DNA of 11,819 bases from contig CAZBBA010000102.1 in assembly GCA_964490015.1 (NCBI GenBank), forward strand, positions 1 to 11,819, in the 5' to 3' direction. This stretch comes from an uncultured Rikenellaceae bacterium. Lineage in GTDB: Bacteria; Bacteroidota; Bacteroidia; Bacteroidales; Tenuifilaceae. A program made the translations under genes and the position numbers. The notes below the pieces were generated by a model. That model did not search any database and was not told where the DNA came from. It was given only the letters and a program-made list of their open reading frames with translations. Of this stretch, positions 1 to 11,819 are shown piece by piece. How positions within the stretch are numbered: position 1 is the stretch's first letter; the number at the start of each line of letters is the position of its first letter.

Positions 1-506
1 ATTTGGGCAATTTGAACATCTAACACATCATTTTCGGTGAGCAATCCCCTATCCGTTTTATCCAGGGTCGATTTGGTAGCCTCAATCTGTTTCTCGAGAT
101 TTTGAATTTGGGCATTCAAATCATCGAGCTGCTTTGCTGTGGCAGCATTTTCGGCAACCAATTTTTCGATTCGGGCTCGCTCATACTTGGCAGTTGCCAG
201 CTGTTGATAAAGAGGAGCCAGCTGTTTTGCTGTATCGGGCCGCCGCGAAAGCAGAGCACGTTTAGATGCAAGCAGCTGTTCCCGCTTTAGAAAAAGTTGC
301 GTGCTATCGATAAAACCAACCACCTCTTTTGCATCGAGCAGTTGCCCCTCCTCCACGTTAAGCATCAAAATTTTTCCTACCCCTTCAGCCGAAACGATCA
401 CCTCAGTTGTTTCGAATGTCCCTGTTGCATCATAATCGCCATTACCATCACTGCAGGCTGAAAAAAATGCAGCCATAGAAACAATTAGTAAGTATTTAGT
501 TTTCAT
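1..506 (-). CDS. HlyD-family efflux periplasmic adaptor (membrane-fusion protein), lipoprotein form; partial, C-terminus lies beyond the window start
   Basis: Minus-strand ATG at 506..504 gives MKTKYLLIVSMAAFFSACSDGNG..., a signal peptide plus lipobox (FSAC). It is followed by VIVSAEGVGKILMLNVEEGQLLDAKEVVGFIDS (a biotin-lipoyl-like hairpin) and long coiled-coil text (LASKRALLSRR...AKQLDDLNAQIQNLEKQIEATK) typical of MFP/HlyD adaptors. The frame is open to position 1 and is absent from the ORF track only because it has no stop within the window. It lies immediately downstream of tolC on the same strand. Confidence 0.8.
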   Translation of the reverse strand, partial: MKTKYLLIVSMAAFFSACSDGNGDYDATGTFETTEVIVSAEGVGKILMLNVEEGQLLDAKEVVGFIDSTQLFLKREQLLASKRALLSRRPDTAKQLAPLYQQLATAKYERARIEKLVAENAATAKQLDDLNAQIQNLEKQIEATKSTLDKTDRGLLTENDVLDVQIAQ

Positions 507-611
507 ATATTAAGGTTTTTACATAGAGTTTAATTCGAAATACTGGGCTATCAACTATTACTATTAAAATCAAAAATTTAGTGCCAAAGAATTCTCGTAA
601 CGCAAAAGCCC

Positions 612-1904
612 CTACAGGTTGCCTCCAAGCAAGTAGATCCGTTTTACCTTCTCTTTAATTATCAGTATTTCACGGTACTCCATATCGAGACGTGCCCTGG
701 CAGCGGCATTAAAATCACCTAAGAACTCTGATGATGTGATGGTTCCATTGGTCAGCTGTGCTTCACTCCTTTGCTTAACTTCGTCCAATAGGGTTGTTAC
801 CTGCTTATCGATCAATAGCTGCTGCTCAAGCATTTCAATCTGATTCTCGGTGGCTATCAAAGCGCTCTCCTGCCCGTCCTCAAAGGCTCTCTGCCTAAGG
901 TCAATAATACTCTTCTGAACCAGAAATTGTTCCCGTTCGCGGTGCGAAAAATTCCAATCCCAAATATTCCACGATAGCCTTGCACCCACCACCACAAAGG
1001 GGTTCCACTCGTTGCTGAGCATGTTGAGCCCCGGTTTTCCGTAGCCCGTCGAAATAAATCCGGCAATTGTTGGCATCCGCATTCGCGAATTAAGAGCAGT
1101 ACGGGCATCAAAAACCTCGCGCCGATGGGTAAAGTTGCTAATCTCAGGCCTTGAAAACGATACCGATTGGGTGTTGGGAAATTCAGGTAGAACAAATTTA
1201 TCGGTTATTTCCAGCTTAACTCCGGTTAACTTTTCCAATGATTTTAAAAGCGAAGCTTTTTGGGCAGCCAACTCAAGGAGTTTCTGCTCAAGCCTTAAAA
1301 CCTCGGCCTGCAACGACTTAACAACCGATGAAAGCACTACCCCCTCACGCACACCACCTTCCATAGATTCCCTTCGGCTAGTAAGCTCCTCGCCCATCAG
1401 CTTAAGCCTTTTTTGACTTATGTCGAGTAGCAGAATTGTAAAGAATGCCTCATTTACCCTTTCCCTAAGGTTATACACCTCGCTTGTAATTGAACCCTGA
1501 TCGACCTTAAGTTGCGCATAAGCCAAATCCTTACGGGCCAATGTTTTTCCACCATCCCAAATTAGTTGCGAGATATCAATATTGATTTTATACTGATCAC
1601 GATCGGGGCTGGGGACATCGATGCTAAAAGGAATATTCTGGGTATTGAAATCGATACTTGTAACATCCGATTGCCAAGTTGCTGTGGCATTCAATTCGAG
1701 TTTTGGGTAGTATGACGTGTTGAGATTTTTTACCTGTAGAGCATTTGCCGAATCGAGTGCCATACTTATGGCCGAAACCGGATTATGCTCGTCCAACGCA
1801 CGGTAAAACATGGGTAAAGTTACAATCCTTTGCTCCTGTGCATTTAAAGAGTTTTTACTAATAGCAAGGAGCAGTACAATAAACGATATTACAACAGATC
1901 TCAT
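612..1904 (-). CDS. TolC-family outer membrane efflux protein (OEP)
   Basis: The ORF-track frame 612..2042 contains an internal ATG at 1904..1902 that starts MRSVVISFIVLLLAISKNSLNAQ, a classical signal peptide. Using it removes the 98-nt overlap with tetR. The protein is about 431 aa with two repeated helical/beta modules and an abundance of L/Q/E coiled-coil text, consistent with the PF02321 outer-membrane factor architecture. Confidence 0.85.
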   Translation of the reverse strand: MRSVVISFIVLLLAISKNSLNAQEQRIVTLPMFYRALDEHNPVSAISMALDSANALQVKNLNTSYYPKLELNATATWQSDVTSIDFNTQNIPFSIDVPSPDRDQYKINIDISQLIWDGGKTLARKDLAYAQLKVDQGSITSEVYNLRERVNEAFFTILLLDISQKRLKLMGEELTSRRESMEGGVREGVVLSSVVKSLQAEVLRLEQKLLELAAQKASLLKSLEKLTGVKLEITDKFVLPEFPNTQSVSFSRPEISNFTHRREVFDARTALNSRMRMPTIAGFISTGYGKPGLNMLSNEWNPFVVVGARLSWNIWDWNFSHREREQFLVQKSIIDLRQRAFEDGQESALIATENQIEMLEQQLLIDKQVTTLLDEVKQRSEAQLTNGTITSSEFLGDFNAAARARLDMEYREILIIKEKVKRIYLLGGNL

Positions 1905-1944
1905 AGATTTACATTTAAATAAGTATCTCACTCCCATAATTATA

Positions 1945-2577
1945 CTAACATTTCCCGGCTTGCTTAAACTTGATGGCGCAAATAACAAAATCGGTAACCT
2001 GCGCCTTGCGTTCCTCAAGAAACTTAACAAACTCCTGCTCATCGTCGTTAAAAAGCACCTTCTCCAGTAAAGGCTTTGCGGCGAATGGAAAAATACACAA
2101 GCTAAGCAGGTTGACTATAAAGTGGCGAGCACCATCGGTATCAACATTAAGCATTTCGGCTAGTTTAACAAAAGCAATTTGATGTATAAAACCAAAGTCT
2201 ACGCCCGATTTCTCAAATATTCCCTTAATATTAGCCGGATCGCGGTTTATCTCCCTTAAAATAAAAAGAGGTAAGAAAGGGTGCTTAAGGAATAAGTTAA
2301 TGTACCCATCCACAATTAGCCGAATCTTACTCTCAAAGGGTATATCCTCCGATAGAATTGCACCCGAAATGGTGGGGAACAGAAGGCCAATCTCCTTGCT
2401 AAAAATAATCTCGAAGAGTTTCTCCTTACTTCTAAAGTAGTAGTGCAGCAAAGCCTTATTAATGCCTGCCTCATCGGCAATCTCCTGCATTCGTGCGCCA
2501 TCAAGCCCTTTACGAATAAAGACCTTACGTGCAGCCTCAAGGATTATTTTCTCGGTATCCTGCTTATCATCAACCAT
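1945..2577 (-). CDS. TetR/AcrR-family transcriptional repressor
   Basis: The N-terminal HTH region reads TEKIILEAARKVFIRKGLDGARMQEIADEAGINKALLHYYFRSKEKLF, the canonical TetR signature. The track start at 2595 is TTG. The first ATG is at 2577..2575 (MVDDKQD...) and is preferred. The gene sits 40 nt upstream of tolC on the same strand. Confidence 0.85.
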   Translation of the reverse strand: MVDDKQDTEKIILEAARKVFIRKGLDGARMQEIADEAGINKALLHYYFRSKEKLFEIIFSKEIGLLFPTISGAILSEDIPFESKIRLIVDGYINLFLKHPFLPLFILREINRDPANIKGIFEKSGVDFGFIHQIAFVKLAEMLNVDTDGARHFIVNLLSLCIFPFAAKPLLEKVLFNDDEQEFVKFLEERKAQVTDFVICAIKFKQAGKC

Positions 2578-2596
2578 ATTGATTCTACTTTTCAAT

Positions 2597-2612
2597 TTAA
2601 CCGAATGGTTAA
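2597..2612. promoter_or_regulatory. Perfect palindrome TTAACCgaatGGTTAA between the tetR -7 element and the tetR start codon; putative TetR operator
   Basis: Directly read: ttaacc-gaat-ggttaa is a 6-bp inverted repeat with a 4-bp spacer, 20-35 nt upstream of the tetR ATG. Further GGTTAA/TTAACC half-sites occur at 2659-2664 and 2682-2687, and a near-palindrome aattggtaa...ttaaccaatt at 2638-2668. Confidence 0.4.
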
Positions 2613-2622
2613 ATTAGTTGGT

Positions 2623-2630
2623 CAAATATA
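2623..2630 (-). promoter_or_regulatory. Bacteroidetes-type -7 promoter element (TATATTTG on the minus strand) for tetR, with a TTTG -33-like element about 21 nt upstream
   Basis: Plus-strand caaatata is TATATTTG on the minus strand and matches the Bacteroidetes sigma-A -7 consensus TAnnTTTG. A TTTG lies 21 nt further upstream on the same strand (plus-strand caaa at about 2652-2655). The element sits just upstream of the palindromic operator and the tetR start. Confidence 0.4.
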
Positions 2631-2953
2631 CAATAATTGAATTGGTAATTCCAAATTTTTAACCAATTATTTTAACTGTATGGTTAAACTTTCAAAAATG
2701 TTAAACAACATAATCCAATAAAAATATTTTTTGTACATTGCTTAATATTTAATTAAATTTATAAATCTAATTAAATGAAGAAATCTGAGCACAAAGTTCA
2801 TACTTATAAGTAATATTGTGTGTAATGATTGAACACCACTAACAATAACTAGCATTAATAAAATAATATTTCTTTCATTTAAGCATAATACAAAAAAGGG
2901 AAAGCCGAAAACCTTATAATTAAATAGAGTAGGCAACTAAATCTTTAATTATT

Positions 2954-3634
2954 ATGGCAGTATTAATTATTTTACTAATTGTGGCAGCATTTATATATTT
3001 TAAGTGGATCAGAGATCCCAAAGAAGTAAGAGATCGCTGCAAAAACAGAAGCGAAGAGCAAAAAAAAGTTATAAGGTACTTTATGAGAGACGGTTGTCTA
3101 GCGCTCGGGCTTTTAAAAGATGAGGAATACGAAGCTTTGGTTGCTAAAAAAATCAAAAGTATGGATTTTAAACAAAAAGCTCTTAACAAAATCGGCCTAG
3201 ATGAGTCAGAACTTCAGGAAATTGAGCCAGTGAGCTTTGAGGGTTATTGGTTTGATGAGAAAAAAACGTTCTCAAAATATGGTAAAGATAAAAAATGGAG
3301 AAGTTCTGCATACCAGATTTCTTGGTTATTCTTTAGTTCCACACAAGTGTATTTATATCAATACACCTTTAATTTGGATGAAGATGGTAAAATGGAAAAA
3401 ACAGAAGAGTATTTCTATAAAGACATTACCAATTTCCAAACTATTTCCGACACCATCGAAACCCCCATTTGGGATCCAAAAAAAGATAAAAGTATTCTTG
3501 TAAATATTGACAAAAACCGCTTTGCAGTTACAGTTCCAGGAGACAAATTCCTCTGTTCCTTGGAACAAAATGATTATACTGAACGAGCTATTCAGGCAAT
3601 GAAAGCAAAATTACGTGAGAAGAAAAATGCCTAA
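2954..3634 (+). CDS. Hypothetical protein with an N-terminal transmembrane anchor; first gene of the low-GC cluster
   Basis: ATG at 2954, 226 aa. The N-terminus MAVLIILLIVAAFIYFKWI is a single hydrophobic helix, followed by a K/E-rich soluble domain with no motif I recognise. The stop at 3632-3634 is 3 nt before the next ATG, suggesting translational coupling. Confidence 0.6.
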   Translation: MAVLIILLIVAAFIYFKWIRDPKEVRDRCKNRSEEQKKVIRYFMRDGCLALGLLKDEEYEALVAKKIKSMDFKQKALNKIGLDESELQEIEPVSFEGYWFDEKKTFSKYGKDKKWRSSAYQISWLFFSSTQVYLYQYTFNLDEDGKMEKTEEYFYKDITNFQTISDTIETPIWDPKKDKSILVNIDKNRFAVTVPGDKFLCSLEQNDYTERAIQAMKAKLREKKNA

Positions 3635-3637
3635 AAA

Positions 3638-4081
3638 ATGAGCCTCGAAGTAATACCAAGCCAATGCGAACAGGTTATAGCGCGAGATTATTGTCAAAAT
3701 CACCCGTTGATTCGTCCCAAAACCAACATAATAACATTTGTACTATGGGTTTTGGCTATTGAAGTTATCTCAGTTGTAATAGCATACATTACTTTACGCC
3801 TGTTTCAATTTCTTGGTATTACTGCTTCTTTCAGCACAATGCATGCAATAACTTTTGCCATTGTTGTTATTTTTTTACTGAAAAAGATATGCGTATTGCT
3901 GATAGAGCTTTACCAACACTATGCGTTAGAAAAAACACGACGAAGATGCACAATGATGCCTTCTTGTTCTGAATATGCTTTGTTGGCTTTAAAAAAATAC
4001 AATGTTATCAGAGGATTGTACAAAACTTATATCCGATTGACAACGAAATGCAACGGAAGTTACATAACTGATTATCCATAA
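3638..4081 (+). CDS. YidD-family (PF01809, 'membrane protein insertion efficiency factor'-like) domain protein with an N-terminal membrane extension
   Basis: The C-terminal 80 aa read LIELYQHYALEKTRRRCTMMPSCSEYALLALKKYNVIRGLYKTYIRLTTKCNGSYITDYP. This matches the YidD hallmark ...YQ..IS....CRF.PTCS.YA.EA....G...G..L...RI.RCHP...G.DPVP (E. coli YidD recalled from memory). The N-terminal 67 aa add two hydrophobic helices. An alternative internal start ATG at 3839 (MHAITFAIVV...) would give a canonical ~80-aa YidD. Confidence 0.65.
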   Translation: MSLEVIPSQCEQVIARDYCQNHPLIRPKTNIITFVLWVLAIEVISVVIAYITLRLFQFLGITASFSTMHAITFAIVVIFLLKKICVLLIELYQHYALEKTRRRCTMMPSCSEYALLALKKYNVIRGLYKTYIRLTTKCNGSYITDYP

Positions 4082-4095
4082 AAAATACAATTAAC

Positions 4096-5316
4096 ATGGG
4101 AATATTTAATAAAAACCGCACTGACGGTGAAACATTTGATGGACAGGGTGAAGAAAGAAAAGGCCCTATTGATCGAATAAAATACAATGGAGAAAAAGAT
4201 GACCTTGTATGGAAATTTCCATACGATAATCTATCGACTGCTACTGAACTGACCGTAAACTTTAGTCAGGAAGCAGTTTTTGTAAAAGGTGGAGCTATTG
4301 CAGATATTTTTGGCCAGGGTCCACATACTTTAAGTACGAATAATATACCTGTTCTGCAAAAATTGATTAACTTACCTTTTGGTGGAAATACCCCTTTTAC
4401 TGCGGAGGTTTGGTTTGTTAATAAAACAATACGCCGTAACCTTAAATTTGGCACACCCGATCCATTTGATATTTACGACCCTCATTTTGATAACCCTATT
4501 CCTGTGCGTTCATATGGTGAATATGGCATTCAAATAACCGATTCCTCGGCATTCTTGCAGCAAATGGTGGGAACTTTGCACCTTTTTACAACGGAAGACA
4601 TTATTGATCAATTCAAATCATTAGTAGTACAAAAACTTAAAGACTCAATAAGTAAGTTTATTGTGAAAAAAGAGGTTACAGTTGTAAAAATCAATGCCTA
4701 TATTGATGAAGTAGCAAATTATGTTCGAGATGCAATAAATGAAGAATTTGCTCAATACGGTATTCGCATAGCAAGTTTTAATATTGCTTCAATAAGTTAT
4801 GACAAAGAAGATGAAAGGGTTAAGGAAATATTGGCTCAGGATGTTGAATTGAGAAGAGCTAAAACTAAAGCCCAAGAACGTAATGTGCAAGGTTTCACAT
4901 ATCATGACGAGCAAAAATTCGATGTATTGAAAACCGCCGCTGGCAATGAAGGGAGTGCAGGCCAAATGATGGGAGCAGGTATGGGACTTGGAATGGGCTT
5001 TGGTGTAGGAGGCGCATTTGGACAACAAATGGGAAATGTTGCAGGTGCCATGCAGCAACAGCCACAACAACAACAGCAACAACAGCAACAAACCCCACCA
5101 CCACCACCAACAGCAACTGTTTGGTTTGTATTAATAAACAATCAGCAGTATCAATACGACACTAATGCCCTTAGTCAATACATTCAAAGTGGTCAGGTAA
5201 CTCGCGACACATTAGTTTGGAAAGCGGGTATGGCACAATGGCTAAAAGCTAGCGAATGTCCTGAATTACAAGGATTGTTTGGCGCAACTCCGCCACCCCC
5301 ACCACCGAATTTATAA
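4096..5316 (+). CDS. SPFH/Band-7 'virion core protein-like' family protein (YdjI/COG4260-like) with Gly/Met-rich, polyQ and polyP linkers and a C-terminal DUF4339 (GYF-like) domain
   Basis: The N-terminus MGIF...DDLVWKFPYD...SQEAVFVKGGAIADIFGQGPHTLSTNNIPVLQKL...NTPFTAEVWFVN...KFGTPDP follows the pattern of the Bacillus YdjI SPFH family as I recall it (MGIF..TLVWRFP..SQVAVFVNEGQ..DVFGPG...PFKAEVYFVN). The middle contains GAGMGLGMGFGVGGAFGQQMGNVAGAM, then QQQPQQQQQQQQQ, then TPPPPPT. The C-terminus WFVLINNQQYQYDTNALSQYIQSGQVTRDTLVWKAGMAQWLKASECPELQGLF fits the DUF4339/GYF-like consensus (W.....G..GP.....L...G.I...TLVW..GM..W). Confidence 0.8.
   Translation: MGIFNKNRTDGETFDGQGEERKGPIDRIKYNGEKDDLVWKFPYDNLSTATELTVNFSQEAVFVKGGAIADIFGQGPHTLSTNNIPVLQKLINLPFGGNTPFTAEVWFVNKTIRRNLKFGTPDPFDIYDPHFDNPIPVRSYGEYGIQITDSSAFLQQMVGTLHLFTTEDIIDQFKSLVVQKLKDSISKFIVKKEVTVVKINAYIDEVANYVRDAINEEFAQYGIRIASFNIASISYDKEDERVKEILAQDVELRRAKTKAQERNVQGFTYHDEQKFDVLKTAAGNEGSAGQMMGAGMGLGMGFGVGGAFGQQMGNVAGAMQQQPQQQQQQQQQTPPPPPTATVWFVLINNQQYQYDTNALSQYIQSGQVTRDTLVWKAGMAQWLKASECPELQGLFGATPPPPPPNL
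5051..5110 (+). repeat. In-frame trinucleotide microsatellite: (CAA/CAG) x about 13 followed by (CCA) x 5
   Basis: Directly read: cagcaacagccacaacaacaacagcaacaacagcaacaa then accccaccaccaccaccaaca. It encodes the polyQ/polyP linker of the SPFH protein. A second proline tract, ccgccacccccaccaccg, occurs at about 5291-5308. Confidence 0.8.
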
Positions 5317-5335
5317 ACTTAAATTCCAGAATAAT

Positions 5336-6088
5336 ATGTCAAAAGTCAAACTCATAGCTAACATCATTTTGCCAATAGTGGTAATTGCAATTACTATTGT
5401 GTTGTTTTTTATGTTTAAACCAGTAGATGCAACGATACTGTTCTATCTTAACCTCGGATATCTCATATTTCTTGAGATAATTTTCTTTGGGTATCTAAAT
5501 GTTTTATACTCCAAAGTAAAAGATTTTTCAACCCCTTTTCTTGCTGTTTTTGGTATTTATGCGTTTTACTATATTGTAATAGGGGTTATTTTCATGTTAG
5601 TGTATTCACTTGCACTTTCTAACTTATTACCGTTAAAGCATTATATTGCCGCACTTATGGTGCTTACCGTACTTTGGATAATAATTTCGGTATTGACAGC
5701 TCAAGTGGACAGCAACTATAAAGGTACAGTAGATAAGCTTAAAGATGACGTGCATACTTTGAACTTCTACACACAAAAAATCAACCTACTCGCTAATCGT
5801 TATGAGAAGCTTTGTGCAGAAAGAGGCTTAAAATATGAGACAGACTCCAATAATAGAACAGTACTTGACCGCTTGAAAGGAAAATTAAGTTTTCTCACAC
5901 CTAATATCTTACATAGCGATACTGCAATTTCTCAATTAACTTCCTTGTTCAACAAATGCGAAGATATAATTGAAGAAACCGAATCTGCAACAGAAGATAA
6001 TCTTCCAGAAGTTCAGAAGAAAATGCAACGCTTTGTAGATAATGCCATAGCAGAGATTGATATGTTAAAAAATTTAACCAGAAGATAA
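5336..6088 (+). CDS. Integral membrane protein with 4 predicted TM helices and a C-terminal cytoplasmic coiled-coil domain
   Basis: The track ORF starts at 5279, but the N-terminus MAQLRHPHHRIYKLKFQNN overlaps the upstream gene. ATG at 5336 (MSKVKLIANIILPIVVIAITIVLFF...) is the more plausible start. Four hydrophobic stretches are followed by about 110 aa of K/E/L-rich heptad-like sequence. The stop at 6086-6088 is 3 nt before the next ATG. Confidence 0.65.
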   Translation: MSKVKLIANIILPIVVIAITIVLFFMFKPVDATILFYLNLGYLIFLEIIFFGYLNVLYSKVKDFSTPFLAVFGIYAFYYIVIGVIFMLVYSLALSNLLPLKHYIAALMVLTVLWIIISVLTAQVDSNYKGTVDKLKDDVHTLNFYTQKINLLANRYEKLCAERGLKYETDSNNRTVLDRLKGKLSFLTPNILHSDTAISQLTSLFNKCEDIIEETESATEDNLPEVQKKMQRFVDNAIAEIDMLKNLTRR

Positions 6089-6091
6089 ACA

Positions 6092-6709
6092 ATGGAAAAG
6101 GTTATTAAATTGAATTGCCCCGGTTGCGGAGCACCTGTTTCAACCGAACATAAAACTTGCATTTTTTGTAGTCGCCCAATCATTATCAGTACAATAACGG
6201 ACATTGTCTCAATGCCAACCCCCGAAGTGAATAAATATGCTAACGCATACCGTAAAGAGTTGGTGACTAATCCCGATAATAAAGACCTGAATATGTCTCT
6301 TGCAATGTGCTATTTCAAACTAAAAATGTATGATAAAGCTTCAGAAGTATTTGAAAAAGCCGTTGAAGATAACTTCGAGGATGCAGATAGATTCTTCTAT
6401 GCAGCAGTTAACTTGCTTAAAGGACAAAAGGCGTTTGTTACACCGCGGGCTAACATTGATAAAGCCTTGGAGTACCTAAATGCTGCTAATATGATTGAAA
6501 GCAAGGCTATTTATCATTACTTTCTGGCTTACATCAAAAAAGACTATTTTGACAGAAAATATCTTAACATTAAACCAAACTGGGAGGAGGAGTTAAATAA
6601 TGCTATCGATTTAGGTTTGACAAATGAAGAGGCCTATCAATTGTTCGAATTATTGGGAGTTGAACAACCTGAATGTTTACAATCAGCAGAGGAGGAGGAA
6701 ATAGGTTAA
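6092..6709 (+). CDS. Zinc-ribbon (CPxCG...CxxC) plus TPR-like helical-repeat protein with an acidic C-terminus
   Basis: The N-terminus MEKVIKLNCPGCGAPVSTEHKTCIFCSRP has four Cys in zinc-ribbon geometry (C-x2-C-x12-C-x2-C). The remainder (NMSLAMCYFKLKMYDKASEVFEKAVEDN...ALEYLNAANMIESKAIYHYFLAYIKK) reads as TPR-like helical hairpins. It ends ...SAEEEEIG. Confidence 0.7.
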   Translation: MEKVIKLNCPGCGAPVSTEHKTCIFCSRPIIISTITDIVSMPTPEVNKYANAYRKELVTNPDNKDLNMSLAMCYFKLKMYDKASEVFEKAVEDNFEDADRFFYAAVNLLKGQKAFVTPRANIDKALEYLNAANMIESKAIYHYFLAYIKKDYFDRKYLNIKPNWEEELNNAIDLGLTNEEAYQLFELLGVEQPECLQSAEEEEIG

Positions 6710-6741
6710 AATAGATAGTATATTAGTTGCAAAACTAAAAA

Positions 6742-6785
6742 AGCCTATTGTTGGTTGAAATTTTGAACAACCAAAAGTAGGCTTT
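6742..6785. terminator. Candidate bidirectional intrinsic terminator between convergent genes
   Basis: A 17-bp imperfect inverted repeat, aagcctattgttggttg / caaccaaaagtaggctt (15 Watson-Crick pairs, 1 G-U, 1 mismatch), with loop aaattttgaa. It is preceded by aaaaa and followed by ttaaaatt, so it is T-rich on both strands. It lies between the plus-strand stop at 6709 and the minus-strand stop at 6931. The stem is AT-rich, so confidence is moderate. Confidence 0.45.
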
Positions 6786-6930
6786 AAAATTGATGTAAAT
6801 TGGATAATACTTTTAAAGTAATAGTTTTATTTAAACTACTGTTGTTTACCCTATTGAATAAACAACGCTAGGTTTAAATATCAATTTTATGGTTTATTTC
6901 GATCATTGTAATATTACTTTTTTAGAATAG

Positions 6931-7908
6931 TCATTTAAAAACATTAACCCCTCTATCACCACCAGCAGTGGCAAATGCCCTAAACATGCCAGAGGTGTTA
7001 AACGATAGATTAACATTTCCGTACTTATCAACAGCAATAATTCCACCTCGTCCATCCACCACCTCGAGTTTTCGGTGAATCACCTCTTCGGCTGCCTTCG
7101 CTAACGATAATCCTTTGTACTCCATTAAGGCCGAGATATCGTGCGCTACGGTATAGCGAATAAAGTACTCGCCATGCCCTGTGGCCGATACGGCGCAAGT
7201 TTTATTGTTAGCATAGGTTCCTGCACCAATTATGGGCACATCGCCAACCCTGCCATAGCGTTTATTGGTCATTCCGCCGGTTGATGTGGCTGCAGCCAGA
7301 TTCCCCTGCTTATCGAGGGCTACGCAACCTACCGTTCCCATTTTCTTATCGCGCTCAAGGGCGCGCTGCAAAGCCTTCCAGCTGCGCTCTGTATAGAAAT
7401 ATGAGCTATCCACCACCTCGGCGCCATTTTGCGAAGCAAAAAGTGATGCTCCTTTTCCTACCATCAACACATGTTCCGATTTTTCCATTACCATTCGCGC
7501 TGCCGAAATGGGGTTTTTGATATCGCCAATTCCTGCAACAGCACCAGCACGTAAATCGGAGCCCACCATTATGGCAGCATCGAGTTCATTTTTTCCATCG
7601 TTGGTGAAAACTGCACCGCGACCGGCGTTGAACAAAGGGCAATCCTCGAGGTAACGGACAACCTGCTCAACGGCATCGAGGCTTGAGCCTCCATTCTTTA
7701 AAATCTCCTCACCAATTAGCAGTGCTGCAGAGAGTTCGGTTTCGTATTGATTAATCTGTTCCTCGGTGTAGTTTTCGCGACTCATTGCTCCGGCTCCACC
7801 ATGGAGGGCAATTGCCCACTCGTTAACCTTATCATTACTGATATTTTGGCACGATGCTAGAAAAAAGAGAGCAACTGTCAGAACGGAATACCATAGTTTT
7901 GTCTTCAT
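6931..7908 (-). CDS. iaaA: Isoaspartyl peptidase / L-asparaginase (Ntn-hydrolase, plant-type asparaginase family), lipoprotein precursor
   Basis: Hallmarks seen: ALHGGAGAMSRENYT, the autoproteolytic nucleophile context KKMGTVGCVALDKQGNLAAATSTGGMTNKRYGRVGDVPIIGAGTYANN, and ATGHGEYFIRYTVAHDI. The track start at 7944 is replaced by ATG at 7908 (MKTKLWYSVLTVALFFLASCQ), a signal peptide plus lipobox (LASC). Confidence 0.85.
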   Translation of the reverse strand: MKTKLWYSVLTVALFFLASCQNISNDKVNEWAIALHGGAGAMSRENYTEEQINQYETELSAALLIGEEILKNGGSSLDAVEQVVRYLEDCPLFNAGRGAVFTNDGKNELDAAIMVGSDLRAGAVAGIGDIKNPISAARMVMEKSEHVLMVGKGASLFASQNGAEVVDSSYFYTERSWKALQRALERDKKMGTVGCVALDKQGNLAAATSTGGMTNKRYGRVGDVPIIGAGTYANNKTCAVSATGHGEYFIRYTVAHDISALMEYKGLSLAKAAEEVIHRKLEVVDGRGGIIAVDKYGNVNLSFNTSGMFRAFATAGGDRGVNVFK

Positions 7909-7991
7909 AATTAGGTTTTGTTTTGGGAATATCTGCATTATCAATACTTGCTGTGGAATTCAAAAAAAACCAACCATTAAAACTTTGTAAT

Positions 7992-9614
7992 CTAAAAAGG
8001 AAAATCATCTGCATCCCATTTTCGTGGTGCATCGTCCATCATCTCGGGTAGATCGGCCACCTGATGCTCAATATTCCCATTCACGTAAATCGCTTTGTAG
8101 GGCTCAGTGGGGCAAGCATACTCGCAGGCGCCACAACCTATGCAGATATCCTCGTTCACTTCGGGAAGTAGCAGTCCCTGCCAAGGTACCATATGTACAG
8201 CTTTTGTAGGACAATGCTCGGAACATGCGCCACAATCGGTTCTATCGACCCGCACTATGCAATTGCCCAGATGGAATTTTACTCGTCCTATCTGGGTTCG
8301 TTTTTTAGTTTCAAGATCAAGAAATCGAATGGCTCCTGTTGGACAAACCTCTCCGCAGATTGTGCACTCAAAATTGCAGAAACCCGAGTGGAAATCCATA
8401 TGAGGCTGCAAAATTCCAAAAAAACCATACTCCTTTATAGCAGGTTGAATAACTTGGGTTGGGCAGGCGGTAACGCACAGATGACAAGCTGTACAAGCAT
8501 TTAAAAAATCCTTTTGATTGTACGATCCTGGCGGGGTTACTGGTGCTAATCGGCTATTTGGCCGATCGCCTGCTGTTGATTTTGGGTTAGATTGATCTGA
8601 ACCATGATTCTGTTTTCTTCTTCTACTCTGTCCAAACCCGCGTCCCTGCGCAATGGATTTCAACGATTGTCCCAATAGCGATGCACCAACCACGATACCC
8701 GTAAAAGTTGTTATAAAACCACGGCGCGAGGTATCGGTCTCAACGGTCGATTTTGGTTTTGCTTTAGAGTAGGCAAACCGGTAACCGATTCCACCCTCCT
8801 TACAGCTACCGATACAGTTATAGCAAGCAACGCAACGAGAAAAATCGATATGACGATTTTTAACATCAATGCAACTTGCCTTGCAATCGCGCGAGCATCT
8901 ATTACAGGCAGTACATGCGCTCTCGTCAATTACCAGCTTAAATATTGAAAATCGTGATATAATGCTAAGCAAGGCTCCAACCGGACAGAATGAGTTGCAA
9001 AAAATTCGACCCCAACGCCAAGCGACAACACTAAGAGTAACCGTTAACCCTCCGGTTATGACAATACCCTGCCAGGGCATACCTTTAAAATCAACATGAT
9101 GAAGGGCATAACTATTAAAGAGACCCAGAATTTTAACCAAAAAATTGTTGGCCTCGTAGTAAACTGGTCGTACTAAATCGGAAAAAATGCGCCCAGCAAA
9201 GCTGTAGGGATCGAGCATATACAGTAGGAACAAGGAGCCCGCTAGAGCTGCTACAACTACCACAACCAAGGTTGAGTATCGAATAATATTCCAGGGCTTA
9301 AAATACTTATATCGAACTCTTTTGGTGCGGAAACGGGCTACGATATCCTGAAAAATCCCCAGCGGACAAATCATGGAACAGTAAACCCTTCCGAAAAGTA
9401 ATGTTAGAAGAGATATGGCGATAAAACCAGTTGCCAGAGTTCCTCCTACCTTAATAAACTTTAAAACCGAAGGCGTAAACTGCAAGTATAACAGGCCATT
9501 CAGAAACCCACTCGAGAAAGTGTTTGAAAAATCGATAAATGCAAAGGCAAAAAGGGAGAAATAGATAATGGCTACAACTGTTCGCAACCAGCGAAGAGAT
9601 AAGATCTTTGACAT
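7992..9614 (-). CDS. Membrane-bound polyferredoxin: NapH/MauN/NosR-like N-terminal module (TM helices + CxxxCP motifs) plus about 6 [4Fe-4S] ferredoxin-type Cys clusters
   Basis: 540 aa. N-terminal hydrophobic helices carry VYCSMICPLG and FCNSFCPVG (CxxxCP). Cys clusters: CTACNRCSRDCKASC, CVACYNCIGSC, CTACHLCVTACP, CNFECTICGEVCP, CIVRVDRTDCGACSEHCP and CIGCGACEYACP. There is a low-complexity R/G/S/Q-rich linker, and an internal RRGFITTFTGIVVGASLLG hydrophobic segment. Confidence 0.8.
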   Translation of the reverse strand: MSKILSLRWLRTVVAIIYFSLFAFAFIDFSNTFSSGFLNGLLYLQFTPSVLKFIKVGGTLATGFIAISLLTLLFGRVYCSMICPLGIFQDIVARFRTKRVRYKYFKPWNIIRYSTLVVVVVAALAGSLFLLYMLDPYSFAGRIFSDLVRPVYYEANNFLVKILGLFNSYALHHVDFKGMPWQGIVITGGLTVTLSVVAWRWGRIFCNSFCPVGALLSIISRFSIFKLVIDESACTACNRCSRDCKASCIDVKNRHIDFSRCVACYNCIGSCKEGGIGYRFAYSKAKPKSTVETDTSRRGFITTFTGIVVGASLLGQSLKSIAQGRGFGQSRRRKQNHGSDQSNPKSTAGDRPNSRLAPVTPPGSYNQKDFLNACTACHLCVTACPTQVIQPAIKEYGFFGILQPHMDFHSGFCNFECTICGEVCPTGAIRFLDLETKKRTQIGRVKFHLGNCIVRVDRTDCGACSEHCPTKAVHMVPWQGLLLPEVNEDICIGCGACEYACPTEPYKAIYVNGNIEHQVADLPEMMDDAPRKWDADDFPF

Positions 9615-9624
9615 GCTATTATGG

Positions 9625-10548
9625 TTATACTCTGATACGTTCTATATTCAACTCGTCCAAATTCATGTTGCCCACACCCATCTCGTGAGCAATTTTTATA
9701 TGGCCAATTTCGGCTGGTTCTACTCCAAAAATCTTTGCAGCAGCAGCATCAGCAGCAACCATATCGGTAGAGATTATAAGCGATTTTTTCATTACCAAAT
9801 CAGCTTGACTCACTCCCCGCGGGCCATTACGAGTCATAACCCTATAGGCATCAACCACATTTAAATCGGGTTTGCGCCAGGTGGCAAAATCGGCAATGCA
9901 CTGGTGTAGATCGTTCCTATGCCAGAAACGTCTATCCCAAACAATGCCCATAAGATTCTTTAAACATATGGTAACCTTAGCAGAGCTATGATGCTTTAGC
10001 ACGGGAACATTGATAAATACATCGGAATTGAGAATAAGCTCGTGAACCTTAGCCTCGGTTAGTCTTTTCCCGTTTGCTATCGTAACTCCCTTATAGTAGT
10101 TCTCGGTGTTGCCGGGGACAATTTTGCCTCCCGCCTTTTTCACAGCCTCCTCAATTCCACTATTGGCATAGCACCTATTCCAGGTATCGCAGGTATTATC
10201 GAATACAAAAACATCTTTTGCTCCAGCCTGTAAGCATTGCTCAACAATTCGTGCCACAAGATGTGGATTTGTATTAGCACCCAGCTCTTCGGGCGTATCC
10301 CAACCAATGTTAGGCTTTACCACCACAGTTTGCCCTCTCTTCACAAACTTTCCCATTCCACCCAAGGCAGCAATTGCCTTATCGAACATTTGGGCTGGCT
10401 CACCTCCCATCACGGCAACCAAATCGAATGGTTTACTGGGGTTTGGCTTACTAGAACTAGCCAGGCCATTTGCGCCACTTACATTTAAAAAGGCACCTGC
10501 CATCAATCCGGCACCTAACCCTTTTTTCAAAAAATCTCTTCGCTTCAT
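9625..10548 (-). CDS. Twin-arginine (Tat) signal-bearing DUF362-like protein, tightly coupled (10 nt) to the downstream polyferredoxin
   Basis: The track start at 10644 is TTG. ATG at 10548 gives MKRRDFLKKGLGAGLMAGAFLNVSGANG, a textbook Tat signal (RRxFLK). The body (VVVKPNIGWDTPEELGANTNPHLVARIVEQCLQAGAKDVFVFDNTCD...) resembles the DUF362 (PF04015) proteins that pair with ferredoxins in Bacteroidetes. This is from memory and not verified. Confidence 0.55.
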   Translation of the reverse strand: MKRRDFLKKGLGAGLMAGAFLNVSGANGLASSSKPNPSKPFDLVAVMGGEPAQMFDKAIAALGGMGKFVKRGQTVVVKPNIGWDTPEELGANTNPHLVARIVEQCLQAGAKDVFVFDNTCDTWNRCYANSGIEEAVKKAGGKIVPGNTENYYKGVTIANGKRLTEAKVHELILNSDVFINVPVLKHHSSAKVTICLKNLMGIVWDRRFWHRNDLHQCIADFATWRKPDLNVVDAYRVMTRNGPRGVSQADLVMKKSLIISTDMVAADAAAAKIFGVEPAEIGHIKIAHEMGVGNMNLDELNIERIRV

Positions 10549-10650
10549 ACGCCTCAGGTCTTTTGTTGATATACATGCATTTGATGAAGATTTTGAATCG
10601 TAGTTTAACCGATATTTGGCATTAAAGATACGAAAAACGCGCAAATAGCA

Positions 10651-10658
10651 TATATTTG
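10651..10658 (+). promoter_or_regulatory. TATATTTG -7-type promoter element upstream of the 10717 gene
   Basis: It exactly matches the Bacteroidetes -7 consensus TAnnTTTG and lies 58 nt upstream of the ATG at 10717. There is no well-spaced TTTG -33 element, so this is a weak call. Confidence 0.3.
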
Positions 10659-10716
10659 TACCCTATTGCTTTACTGCGTATCAAAAAGGAAAAGTAACCC
10701 TCAAAATTCTAAAAAG

Positions 10717-11220
10717 ATGGCATCTATAGCGTTAACTTCCAAGAAAACAATAGGCTACGTAATATTCGACATTCTGGCGTTGGCCTTTATATACTTAGTG
10801 CCTACAATTTCGCATATGCTCAGTTTTCCACTCTATTTGATAGAACCCATGCGCATTGCGCTAATCCTTGCGCTGGTGCATACCACCAAGAGAAATGCGT
10901 ACATAATTGCATTATCCCTTCCATTATTCAGCTACTTGGTGTCGGCGCACCCTGTTTTTTACAAGATGTTACTGATTTCGGGCGAGCTGGTGCTGAATGT
11001 ATGGATTTTCTACTTTTTGCTCGGCAAGACTAAAAACGCATTTTTGTCGATTATAGGCTCAATTATTGCCTGCAAAGCCATCTACTATATGGCTAAGTTT
11101 GTAGCTGTTGCCCTAATTTTTAATTCGGGCGAGGGAATTATTTCCACACCGCTTTACATTCAACTTGCAACAACTATTGTGTTTAGCGTGTATCTTGGGT
11201 TGATGTTTAGGAGAAGGTAG
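10717..11220 (+). CDS. Small polytopic membrane protein (about 5 TM helices); possibly an ECF-type substrate-capture (S) component or similar small transporter subunit
   Basis: The track ORF begins at TTG 10666. The first ATG is at 10717 (MASIALTSKKTIGYVIFDILALAFIYLVPTISHM...), giving 167 aa. The protein is almost entirely hydrophobic helices. The family assignment is a guess based on size and topology only. Confidence 0.55.
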   Translation: MASIALTSKKTIGYVIFDILALAFIYLVPTISHMLSFPLYLIEPMRIALILALVHTTKRNAYIIALSLPLFSYLVSAHPVFYKMLLISGELVLNVWIFYFLLGKTKNAFLSIIGSIIACKAIYYMAKFVAVALIFNSGEGIISTPLYIQLATTIVFSVYLGLMFRRR

Positions 11221-11396
11221 AAGACCGAAGACGGAAGTTGGAAGACAGAAGACACCTGCCTCAGCTTGTCTCAGCTTGTCTCGGAAACCGCTGTCCTTTG
11301 CGGTTAACGAGAGGAACCGCTGTCTTTTGGAGGTTAACGAGAGGATGCGGAGCATAAAGAGAGAAGAGAGAAGACAGAAGTTGGAAGTATACTACT
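11221..11396. repeat. Repeat-rich non-coding segment: GAAGAC purine repeats at both ends, a 10-bp tandem duplication (tcagcttgtc x2), and a ~30-bp tandem direct repeat x2
   Basis: Directly read: aagaccgaagacggaagttggaagacagaagaca at 11221-11254; tcagcttgtctcagcttgtc at 11261-11280; gaaaccgctgtcctttgcggttaacgagag at 11284-11313 and gaaccgctgtcttttggaggttaacgagagg at 11314-11344 (about 87% identical, and the first contains the hairpin aaccgc-N8-gcggtt); gagaagagagaagacagaagttggaag at 11361-11387, which repeats gaagacagaag and gaagttggaag from the left end in permuted order. Confidence 0.7.
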
Positions 11397-11442
11397 CACG
11401 GGGTGACTATTTGCTGAGCAGATAGTCACCCCGTGAGTTTTT
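11394..11442 (+). terminator. Strong rho-independent terminator
   Basis: A perfect 14-bp stem, cacggggtgactat / atagtcaccccgtg (extendable to 17 bp: actcacgggg...ccccgtgagt), with an 11-nt loop ttgctgagcag, followed by ttttt at 11438-11442. It is GC-rich (GGGG/CCCC core). It lies 170 nt downstream of the stop at 11220. The reverse-strand downstream context is not T-rich, so it is unidirectional. Confidence 0.8.
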
Positions 11443-11445
11443 ATA

Positions 11446-11600
11446 TGATTTGAAGATTGCCTGCAGTTGTCCGTAGTACCCTGCCAAAGGTCAGGTAAAA
11501 TGGAAGCGTAAATAATTGGATTGATTGGTTGACCTGCCTGCAGGCTGGTTGATTGCCTACCTGCCGGATAGGTAGGGTTGATTGAGCGATTCAAGAATAA
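11446..11600. repeat. Structured intergenic segment with reiterated GGTTGAT(T/C) motifs and short palindromes
   Basis: ggattgattggttgacctgcctgcaggctggttgattgcctacctgccggataggtagggttgattgagcgattc contains ggttgacctgcctgcagg, ggttgattgcctacctgccgg and ggttgattgagcg as direct repeats. It also contains the self-complementary gcctgcaggc and a 7-bp stem hairpin cctacct-gccggat-aggtagg at 11557-11577. Confidence 0.5.
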
Positions 11601-11637
11601 CTTTAAACCCTAAAACCTTAAACGTCAAACTACTCTC

Positions 11638-11819
11638 CTACCCTCCGTTCTCGTCAATCTCCATTAGTTCGAGCCAGCGCTCGCCCTTGGTATCGAGCAG
11701 GTGAATTAATTCTGCAATACGGTTCGATTTGCCTATCAACTCATCGTGGGGTAGGGTTCCGCTGTTGATTACCGATTCTATCTCGGCCTTTTCGTTCTCA
11801 AGGTTTTCAATCTCTTCCG
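11638..11819 (-). CDS. C-terminal end of a convergent gene (5' part beyond the window); coiled-coil tail resembling an ABC-F family ATPase C-terminus
   Basis: The minus-strand frame reads ...EEIENLENEKAEIESVINSGTLPHDELIGKSNRIAELIHLLDTKGERWLELMEIDENGG* with stop TAG at 11640..11638. The ...ERWLEL... coiled-coil ending is typical of ABC-F proteins (from memory). Confidence 0.5.
   Translation of the reverse strand, partial: EEIENLENEKAEIESVINSGTLPHDELIGKSNRIAELIHLLDTKGERWLELMEIDENGG

Follow-up and report, generated by a model that had tools for sequence, protein, structure and literature searches.

A long YidD paralogue with a predicted membrane hairpin, encoded in a conserved operon, as a candidate membrane-proximal adaptor

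The DNA analysed here, referred to throughout as the window, is a stretch of 11,819 nucleotides (nt) from an uncultured Rikenellaceae bacterium (assembly GCA_964490015.1, contig CAZBBA010000102.1, positions 1 to 11,819 of the forward strand). The subject of this work is one of its genes, located at 3638..4081 on the + strand, which encodes 147 amino acids (aa) plus the stop codon and carries a YidD-type domain at its C-terminal end; it is called here the long yidD. Its start codon, ATG 3638, lies 3 nt past the TAA of the upstream open reading frame (ORF) at 2954..3634, and a further in-frame ATG at 3839..3841 (+ strand), encoding Met68, would give a predicted 80-aa product that still matches the YidD family PF01809. 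A first-pass annotation of the window had drawn attention to the coupled start, to the YidD-type domain and to an N-terminal extension with two hydrophobic helices; every element which it described is present where it was placed, and the conservation found is far beyond chance.

The YidD domain occupies residues 82-147 (3881..4078, + strand), as delimited by PF01809, TIGR00278 and the invariant columns of the family alignment. The PF01809 match, which had been proposed as a check of the domain assignment, covers residues 82-140 and scores 48.9 bits, the gathering cut-off being 27, while the NCBIfam equivalog TIGR00278 is matched with 47.6 bits (cut-off 40). Among 68 family members, residues Y92, Q93, Y95, R101, C104, P108, C110, S111, E112, Y113, C138, D145 and P147 are invariant, and with them the core motif of YidD (YQ, the first Cys, P-x-C-S-x-Y, the third Cys and the C-terminal D/P), mean identity to the window protein in this domain being 71%. 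Judged by profile and motif, the long YidD is a member of the YidD superfamily. C19 and H94 were also considered as a fourth metal ligand and were not adopted, since both vary in some members.

The N-terminal extension proved to be equally a property of the family. A word-indexed search of 5.8 billion proteins with the 147-aa query returned 69 homologues, nearly all of 140-170 aa, with more than 90% of the query aligned and identities down to 34%. A profile run exhaustively against 1.84 billion cluster representatives gave 2753 matches at E<=1e-3. Of these, 532 reach E<=1e-10 and 104 reach E<=1e-30, nearly all of the best 150 being full-length (130-190 aa). The N-terminal 81 residues are thereby kept in about 70 close homologues and in at least 150 clusters at 50% identity. 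Their first part, residues 1-30 (3638..3727, + strand), forms a conserved, predicted cytoplasmic motif, delimited by alignments and by an AlphaFold2 model, in which a helix (9-21) is followed by L.RPKTN. In alignments of 27 and 68 members the motif reads EQ..AR.YC.N..L.RPKTNI, with Tyr18 conserved in 97% of the sequences, Cys19 in 87%, Pro27 in 99% and Thr29 in 90%; over residues 8-30 the homologues share on average 54% identity with the window protein, compared with 27-30% in the two helices that follow. Such conservation shows the extension to be real and ATG 3638 to be the correct start, and the 147-aa product is, on this comparative evidence, confirmed.

The internal ATG, which had been put forward as an alternative, is indeed in frame, and the PF01809-matching product is as expected; as a start codon, nevertheless, it was rejected. 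A standard-length YidD initiated at 3839, with the upstream 201 nt untranslated or spurious, would account for that match and for one database entry of 80 aa (P0064), and yet it is highly improbable. In the alignments of 27 and 68 members the Met68 column holds Leu in 66% of the homologues and otherwise I, V, F, A, T or C, so that the internal ATG appears as an accident of the window sequence alone, and orthologues do not start at the equivalent position. Moreover, Met68 falls inside the second transmembrane (TM) helix of a confident structural model, the region upstream of it is conserved as protein across phyla, the invariant Pro27 included, and the close coupling of the long yidD to the gene before it (g1) is itself conserved. 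As for P0064, the only homologue of 80 aa, it is a truncated gene call: the frame continues open upstream of it, where the motif and the two helices are encoded, and the whole ORF has 150 aa. Truncation to 80 aa by the gene caller concerns 2291-2743 of locus L099. In three pig-gut contigs (L091-L093, 6617-7066) the long yidD was not called at all, and a 149-aa homologue, initiated at a GTG which overlaps the 3' end of g1, sits in the apparent gap. As gene callers miss or truncate the long YidD, protein-database counts of this family are too low.

The second part of the extension, residues 31-81 (3728..3880, + strand), is predicted from per-column hydrophobicity and charge in 68 sequences, and from the AlphaFold2 model, to consist of two TM helices with a short loop, free of charges, between them. 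Both stretches, 31-59 and 61-81, have a hydrophobic character in the window protein as well as in each of the 68 homologues, and keep it in spite of the low sequence identity of these helices. The model, built on the 68-sequence alignment, reaches a mean predicted local distance difference test score (pLDDT) of 91.4, with 91-92 for residues 1-30, and a predicted template modelling score of 0.80. Its helices span residues 9-21, 31-58 and 65-79, the last running straight into 81-95, the amphipathic helix of YidD, which is followed by the small helical YidD core. Positive charges are found before the first TM helix (R26, K28) and after the second (K82, K83, R101-R103), while the connecting loop bears none. 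According to the positive-inside rule, charges that flank the hairpin on both sides indicate an N-in/C-in arrangement, and the YidD domain is accordingly predicted to face the cytoplasm, pinned to the membrane surface. Within the first TM helix, Glu42 (3761-3763 of the window) is conserved in 87% of the family; an intramembrane Glu is unusual for a mere anchor. When the N-terminal module was searched alone, it was found only in proteins carrying PF01809 or in fragments on very short contigs. Because it never appears apart from YidD, it is a family-specific extension rather than one of two independent domains, and the term fusion protein, considered in the first-pass annotation, is not its best description.

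The long yidD is the second of five genes, all on the + strand, which are spaced by 3, 14, 19 and 3 nt and between which no terminator-like site was found on that strand of the window. In order, they encode g1 (a TM helix and a PH-like domain), the long YidD, an SPFH protein of the Band_7_1 family with a C-terminal GYF or, in other loci, SHOCT domain, g4 (four TM helices) and g5 (zinc ribbon and TPR). The first of them, g1 (2954..3634, + strand; 226 aa), comprises a TM helix at residues 1-19, a helical linker, a PH-like beta-sandwich and a basic C-terminal helix; a single membrane pass, with the PH-like domain on the cytoplasmic side, is predicted. Its family, for which neither Pfam nor NCBIfam has a model, counts more than 1185 homologues, many at 60-70% identity, with a basic C-terminal helix (..MKAKLREKK) that is invariant. 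The SPFH protein (4096..5316, + strand) matches Band_7_1 with 158.8 bits and contains a C-terminal GYF_2 domain together with polyQ and polyP tracts, without any hydrophobic peak or TM segment; among loci, the C-terminal domain switches between GYF_2 and SHOCT. In the window protein one polyQ run and two polyP runs bracket the GYF_2 domain, and since GYF domains bind proline-rich peptides, self-association of the SPFH protein is conceivable. The fourth gene, g4 (5336..6088, + strand; 250 aa from ATG 5336), encodes a protein with some four TM helices, followed by a cytoplasmic tail, also helical, of about 110 aa; an upstream TTG at 5279 is a possible start, and gene callers choose the 250-aa form. 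Finally, g5 (6092..6709, + strand; 205 aa) matches Zn_Ribbon_1, TPR_19 and TPR_1 of Pfam and has no TM segment. The guanine plus cytosine (GC) content of this cassette (2954-6709) is 35.9%, against 40.3% in the left flank and 43.5% in the right one, which is consistent with horizontal acquisition. The flanks, both on the - strand, contain ordinary genes, which encode a TolC-like outer-membrane protein and a TetR regulator (left, within 612-2595) and an isoaspartyl peptidase (Asparaginase_2), a multi-4Fe-4S membrane protein and a DUF362 protein (right, within 6931-10644), and none of these genes recurs beside the cassette in the other loci.

A pattern scan of one genome per species, over 185,579 species, detected the long YidD family in 85 of them, a number which is a lower bound because the pattern misses the motif of Bacteroides finegoldii. 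Among the carriers are Bacteroidales, including Prevotella, Paludibacter and Barnesiella, Treponema and other Spirochaetes, and Clostridia (Oscillospiraceae, Acutalibacteraceae, Christensenellaceae), with one Erysipelotrichaceae in addition, and most of the carriers are metagenome-assembled genomes (MAGs) from gut, rumen or termite. A complete cassette of the Bacteroidales type is also found in SACF01000001.1 (L005/L017), a MAG labelled Alphaproteobacteria whose label or binning looks doubtful. On long contigs, the homologues have the five genes in common, with g1 of about 226 aa, g4 of 180-250 aa and g5 of about 200 aa, in flanks that are unrelated.

The synteny was quantified with profiles iterated on the fetched loci. 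In Bacteroidota the order g1-YidD-SPFH-g4-g5 is almost invariable; in Treponema and some Clostridia the genes are permuted to g5-g1-YidD-SPFH-g4, and in five loci g5-g1-YidD occurs without SPFH. A same-strand gene within 300 nt upstream of the long yidD is present in 63 of the 68 evaluable species loci, being g1 in 47, F2 in 8 and F4 in 8, with gaps mostly between -20 and +14 nt. In the reverse direction, the long yidD comes right after g1 in five of five independent g1 clusters. Of 80 species loci, 51 contain a detectable SPFH gene; it follows the long yidD directly in 36 species loci, and after a HerA insertion in 3 more, and g4 follows SPFH in 54 loci. The closest and most general association is therefore the one which the long yidD has with its translationally coupled upstream neighbour, whichever gene that is, SPFH being the commonest continuation without being obligatory. 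No rnpA, yidC or sec gene was found beside the long form in about 100 loci. Thus, the first-pass view of a YidD-type domain outside its usual neighbourhood is borne out far beyond the window, and so is that of a gene dedicated to its cluster, the operon synteny being conserved across phyla. The operon is regarded as horizontally mobile, with the long YidD as a fixed subunit.

F2 and F4 characterize a reduced form of the system, since about 16 Firmicutes species have nothing but the long yidD and a soluble gene upstream of it. F2 is a TPR-like protein of about 205 aa with a conserved C-terminal LPKK.GCI.F, in which a Cys comes after a basic patch. F4, found in 7-8 loci, is a second soluble partner family unrelated to F2, and neither of the two contains a TM segment. 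The possibility that they are divergent forms of g1 was rejected by hmmsearch and hhalign, and the similarity of F2 to g5 is at the TPR level only (probability 66%). Among the Clostridia, the TPR-like partner lies directly upstream of the long yidD in loci L038, L050, L054, L058, L061, L064, L065, L074, L076, L080 and L085.

The relation of the long form to canonical YidD could be established in a cultured species. A tblastn search of a plasmid collection located the cassette in B. finegoldii TSDC17.2-1.1, on a sequence named plasmid 5 (L097, NZ_OY725907.1) that carries obgE, adk, hpt and dinB and is therefore really a chromosomal fragment. There (UHF62_RS03995-04020, the long yidD being UHF62_RS04005), a helix-turn-helix (HTH) regulator is followed by g1 (annotated as hypothetical), a 'yidD' of 141 aa, SPFH, g4 (hypothetical) and the zinc-ribbon g5. 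An approximate consensus of canonical-type YidD, used solely as a probe of the same collection, revealed a canonical yidD of 73 aa on plasmid 19 of the same strain (L098, NZ_OY725921.1), directly downstream of rnpA and near tatD, tyrS and metK. With housekeeping genes such as rnpA, tyrS and metK, plasmid 19 is evidently a chromosomal fragment too. The canonical protein scores 109.2 bits with PF01809 and the long one 59.7, and their identity, 49%, extends over no more than 37 residues. When the YidD domain of the long form is aligned to this canonical protein, the three Cys, P.CS.YA and the terminal P are retained. As both genes are present in one genome, the long YidD is a paralogue, in agreement with what had been suspected in the first-pass annotation, the demonstration coming from B. 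finegoldii and not from the genome of the window, whose nearest named relative is a Lentimicrobiaceae MAG. Within the fetched loci themselves, no second yidD was observed (97 loci).

Both paralogues are given one name by RefSeq/PGAP, 'membrane protein insertion efficiency factor YidD'. Taken literally, this naming would favour the idea that the long gene is the sole, relocated housekeeping yidD of its genome, an idea which is practically untenable given the two genes of B. finegoldii, the rarity of the long family (at least 85 of 185,579 species genomes) and a PF01809 score about half that of the canonical copy. TIGR00278 being an equivalog model, the PGAP name is probably an over-annotation when applied to the long form, which should be treated as a distinct subfamily rather than as 'YidD'.

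From this evidence, a working picture of the protein can be proposed. The long YidD would be a 147-aa inner-membrane protein whose hairpin crosses the membrane and returns, so that its divergent YidD domain would be held permanently at the cytoplasmic membrane face, to which canonical YidD attaches only peripherally. Such an anchored module could act as a membrane-proximal adaptor or assembly factor, tethering or organising the product of the translationally coupled upstream gene and, where SPFH is present, helping to fix to the membrane an SPFH scaffold that would otherwise be soluble. It is held with moderate confidence that the anchored long YidD is a specialised paralogue, carried in a mobile operon, which acts in this manner. 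The idea derives from the fact that SPFH and g5 have no TM segment and that F2 and F4 of the Firmicutes are soluble, together with the dependence of the SPFH protein YdjI of Bacillus subtilis on YdjG/YdjH, treated below; the reduced Firmicutes modules carry most of the weight.

The first-pass annotation suggested a different role, namely that of a dedicated insertion-efficiency factor, which would work with YidC/Sec and be specialised for g1 and the four-TM g4 of the cassette. YidD is reported (Yu et al. 2011, J Bacteriol 193:5242, listed in the review PMC8082313) to improve YidC-dependent protein insertion and to contact nascent chains, the C-terminal domain of the long form is homologous to it, the full cassette encodes two further membrane proteins and the long yidD is translationally coupled to one of them, g1. 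Nevertheless, in about 16 Firmicutes species the sole coupled partner is a soluble protein, F2 or F4, with no further conserved membrane protein in the vicinity; the long YidD being the sole membrane protein of these modules, insertion of the cluster's own membrane proteins cannot be its general role. Furthermore, the canonical YidD kept in the same genome (B. finegoldii) could serve insertion, and yidC, rnpA and sec genes are absent beside the long form. This explanation is therefore considered unlikely, and an insertion function is unlikely to be the whole story, even if a role confined to the cluster's own membrane proteins is possible in the full cassette.

The adaptor role, which is preferred here, has to be set against several observations that weigh on the other side. 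The cassette encodes two other membrane proteins, g1 and g4, either of which could anchor SPFH, and about 29 of the 80 species loci show no SPFH gene, so that the link with SPFH is not obligatory, some of these loci being cut by contig ends. The three invariant Cys residues and the intramembrane Glu42 hint at some chemistry (metal, redox or ion) beyond that of a pure adaptor. Finally, the adaptor role and the physical contacts of the long YidD with g1, F2/F4 or SPFH are inferred, and no YidD structure has been solved.

The accessory genes and surroundings of the cassette add another dimension to the problem. At least 19 loci, and that of B. finegoldii, have small HTH genes of the XRE type attached to the operon on its upstream side. 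In 4-5 loci, a DUF87 ATPase of the HerA/FtsK type (about 890 aa) and an acidic protein without known domains (330-790 aa) are inserted between the long yidD and SPFH (L012, 10478-14236; L031, 10422-14098; L094, 3197-8281; L099, 2747-end; L053), the best PADLOC matches of the ATPase being mad8 and defence-type HerA. The 114 immediately flanking genes include AbiD (4), MADS components (3), DRT, DpdF and integrases (2), and type III restriction-modification, Trypco2, CHAT/caspase, AbiEi or reverse transcriptase genes lie nearby in other loci. Together with the patchy distribution over three phyla, the unrelated flanks and the GC content of the cassette below that of its flanks, these features would suit a mobile membrane-acting conflict system of the anti-phage or abortive-infection type, a defence or stress island in which the anchored YidD would be a membrane sensor or effector subunit. 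This must be rated as quite doubtful, however, as no cassette protein significantly matches the PADLOC-DB 2.0 models (only weak matches were seen, with E values of 0.002-0.017, and none for g1, g4, F2 or F4). Neither phage nor true plasmid copies were found: tblastn gave no match for g1 in phages, PHROGs nothing meaningful, and a plasmid origin was rejected, the only plasmid match being the mislabelled chromosomal fragment of B. finegoldii. Many flanks consist of ordinary housekeeping genes, and the SPFH/Band_7_1 operons studied so far concern envelope stress and not defence (PMC8581546).

A broader formulation, in which the cassette, including its XRE regulator and the optional HerA ATPase with the acidic protein, is an unrecognised mobile system for the response to envelope damage or for anti-phage defence, with the YidD fold recruited as core membrane subunit, can be advanced only tentatively. 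If it were true, the YidD domain would be a general membrane-interface module independent of YidC, and the two-gene form of the Clostridia, composed of a soluble partner and the anchored YidD, would reveal its elementary activity.

Whatever the role of the cassette, the long YidD bears on a wider question, since YidD is nearly universal in bacteria, whereas one functional study and no solved structure underlie what is known of it. Another lineage of YidD, fixed to the membrane, separated from rnpA/yidC and tied to SPFH or to one soluble partner, represents an independent handle on the role of the domain, and suggests that it is a reusable membrane-interface module and not solely a helper of YidC. 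The family also exposes an annotation problem, in which one equivalog name is used for both paralogues and the long form is sometimes missed or truncated. Although the long family is rare, it gives experimental access to a protein which is found in nearly all bacteria and whose mechanism is little known, and the presence of the operon in B. finegoldii, a cultured human-gut species, makes these hypotheses directly testable.

Among known systems, the first comparison is with canonical YidD, as in E. coli (PF01809/TIGR00278). Both forms share the YQ motif, C-x3-P-x-C-S-x-Y-A, the third Cys and the terminal D/P, as well as a predicted place at the cytoplasmic face of the inner membrane. The differences begin with size, the 147 aa of the long form being twice the length of canonical YidD, a single-domain protein of about 70-90 aa, and continue with membrane attachment, which involves a TM hairpin and an N-terminal motif in the long form and is peripheral, through an N-terminal amphipathic helix, in the canonical one. 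The signatures are also distinct, YQHYA..E..RRRC.[LM].PSCSEY....KC.G.Y.IDYP in the long form and ..SP....CRF.PTCS.Y...RCHP.GG.DPVP in the canonical one. Whereas canonical yidD resides in the rpmH-rnpA-yidD-yidC neighbourhood, the long form is always in the cassette and never by rnpA or yidC. In size, single-domain architecture and rnpA/yidC context, then, the long form lacks the features which define the equivalog.

A second point of reference is provided by the SPFH-NfeD pairs (stomatin/NfeD, QmcA-YbbJ, FloT-YuaF), in which a protein with a TM hairpin and a small soluble domain is encoded directly upstream of SPFH. The cassette shares with them a small hairpin membrane protein encoded directly upstream of, and coupled to, the SPFH gene. 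In contrast, its soluble domain is YidD and not the OB fold of NfeD, its SPFH protein has no anchor of its own, and the long YidD also occurs without SPFH; no NfeD match was obtained in the Pfam scan, and the AlphaFold2 model of the long YidD is all-helical.

The SPFH protein of the cassette has precisely the SPFH+GYF or Band_7_1+SHOCT architectures catalogued by Balaji & Aravind 2007 (PMC2034487) and Eberhardt et al. 2013 (PMC3581485). These two works concern architectures only, and neither names a YidD partner or the cassette operon. The literature search found no paper naming YidD together with SPFH, and in the literature and databases searched both the long YidD subfamily and the conserved five-gene operon are undescribed.

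The remaining system is the pspA-ydjGHI operon of B. subtilis, whose soluble SPFH protein, YdjI, we take to be a member of Pfam Band_7_1. As in the cassette, where the corresponding proteins are g1, the long YidD and g4, this soluble SPFH protein is co-encoded with small membrane proteins, and its membrane localisation depends on YdjG/YdjH (PMC8581546). YdjG begins with a CxxC zinc-ribbon-type motif, as read from a primer sequence in the same work, and g4 and g5 can be set beside YdjH and YdjG by description only. In contrast with the cassette, the ydj operon has neither YidD nor a PH-like protein, and since no member of the PspA family is found among the called cassette genes, the cassette is not a Psp operon. 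Even so, YdjGHI can be regarded as the closest studied analogue for the way in which the cassette might work, with a soluble SPFH protein brought to the membrane by small partners encoded beside it.

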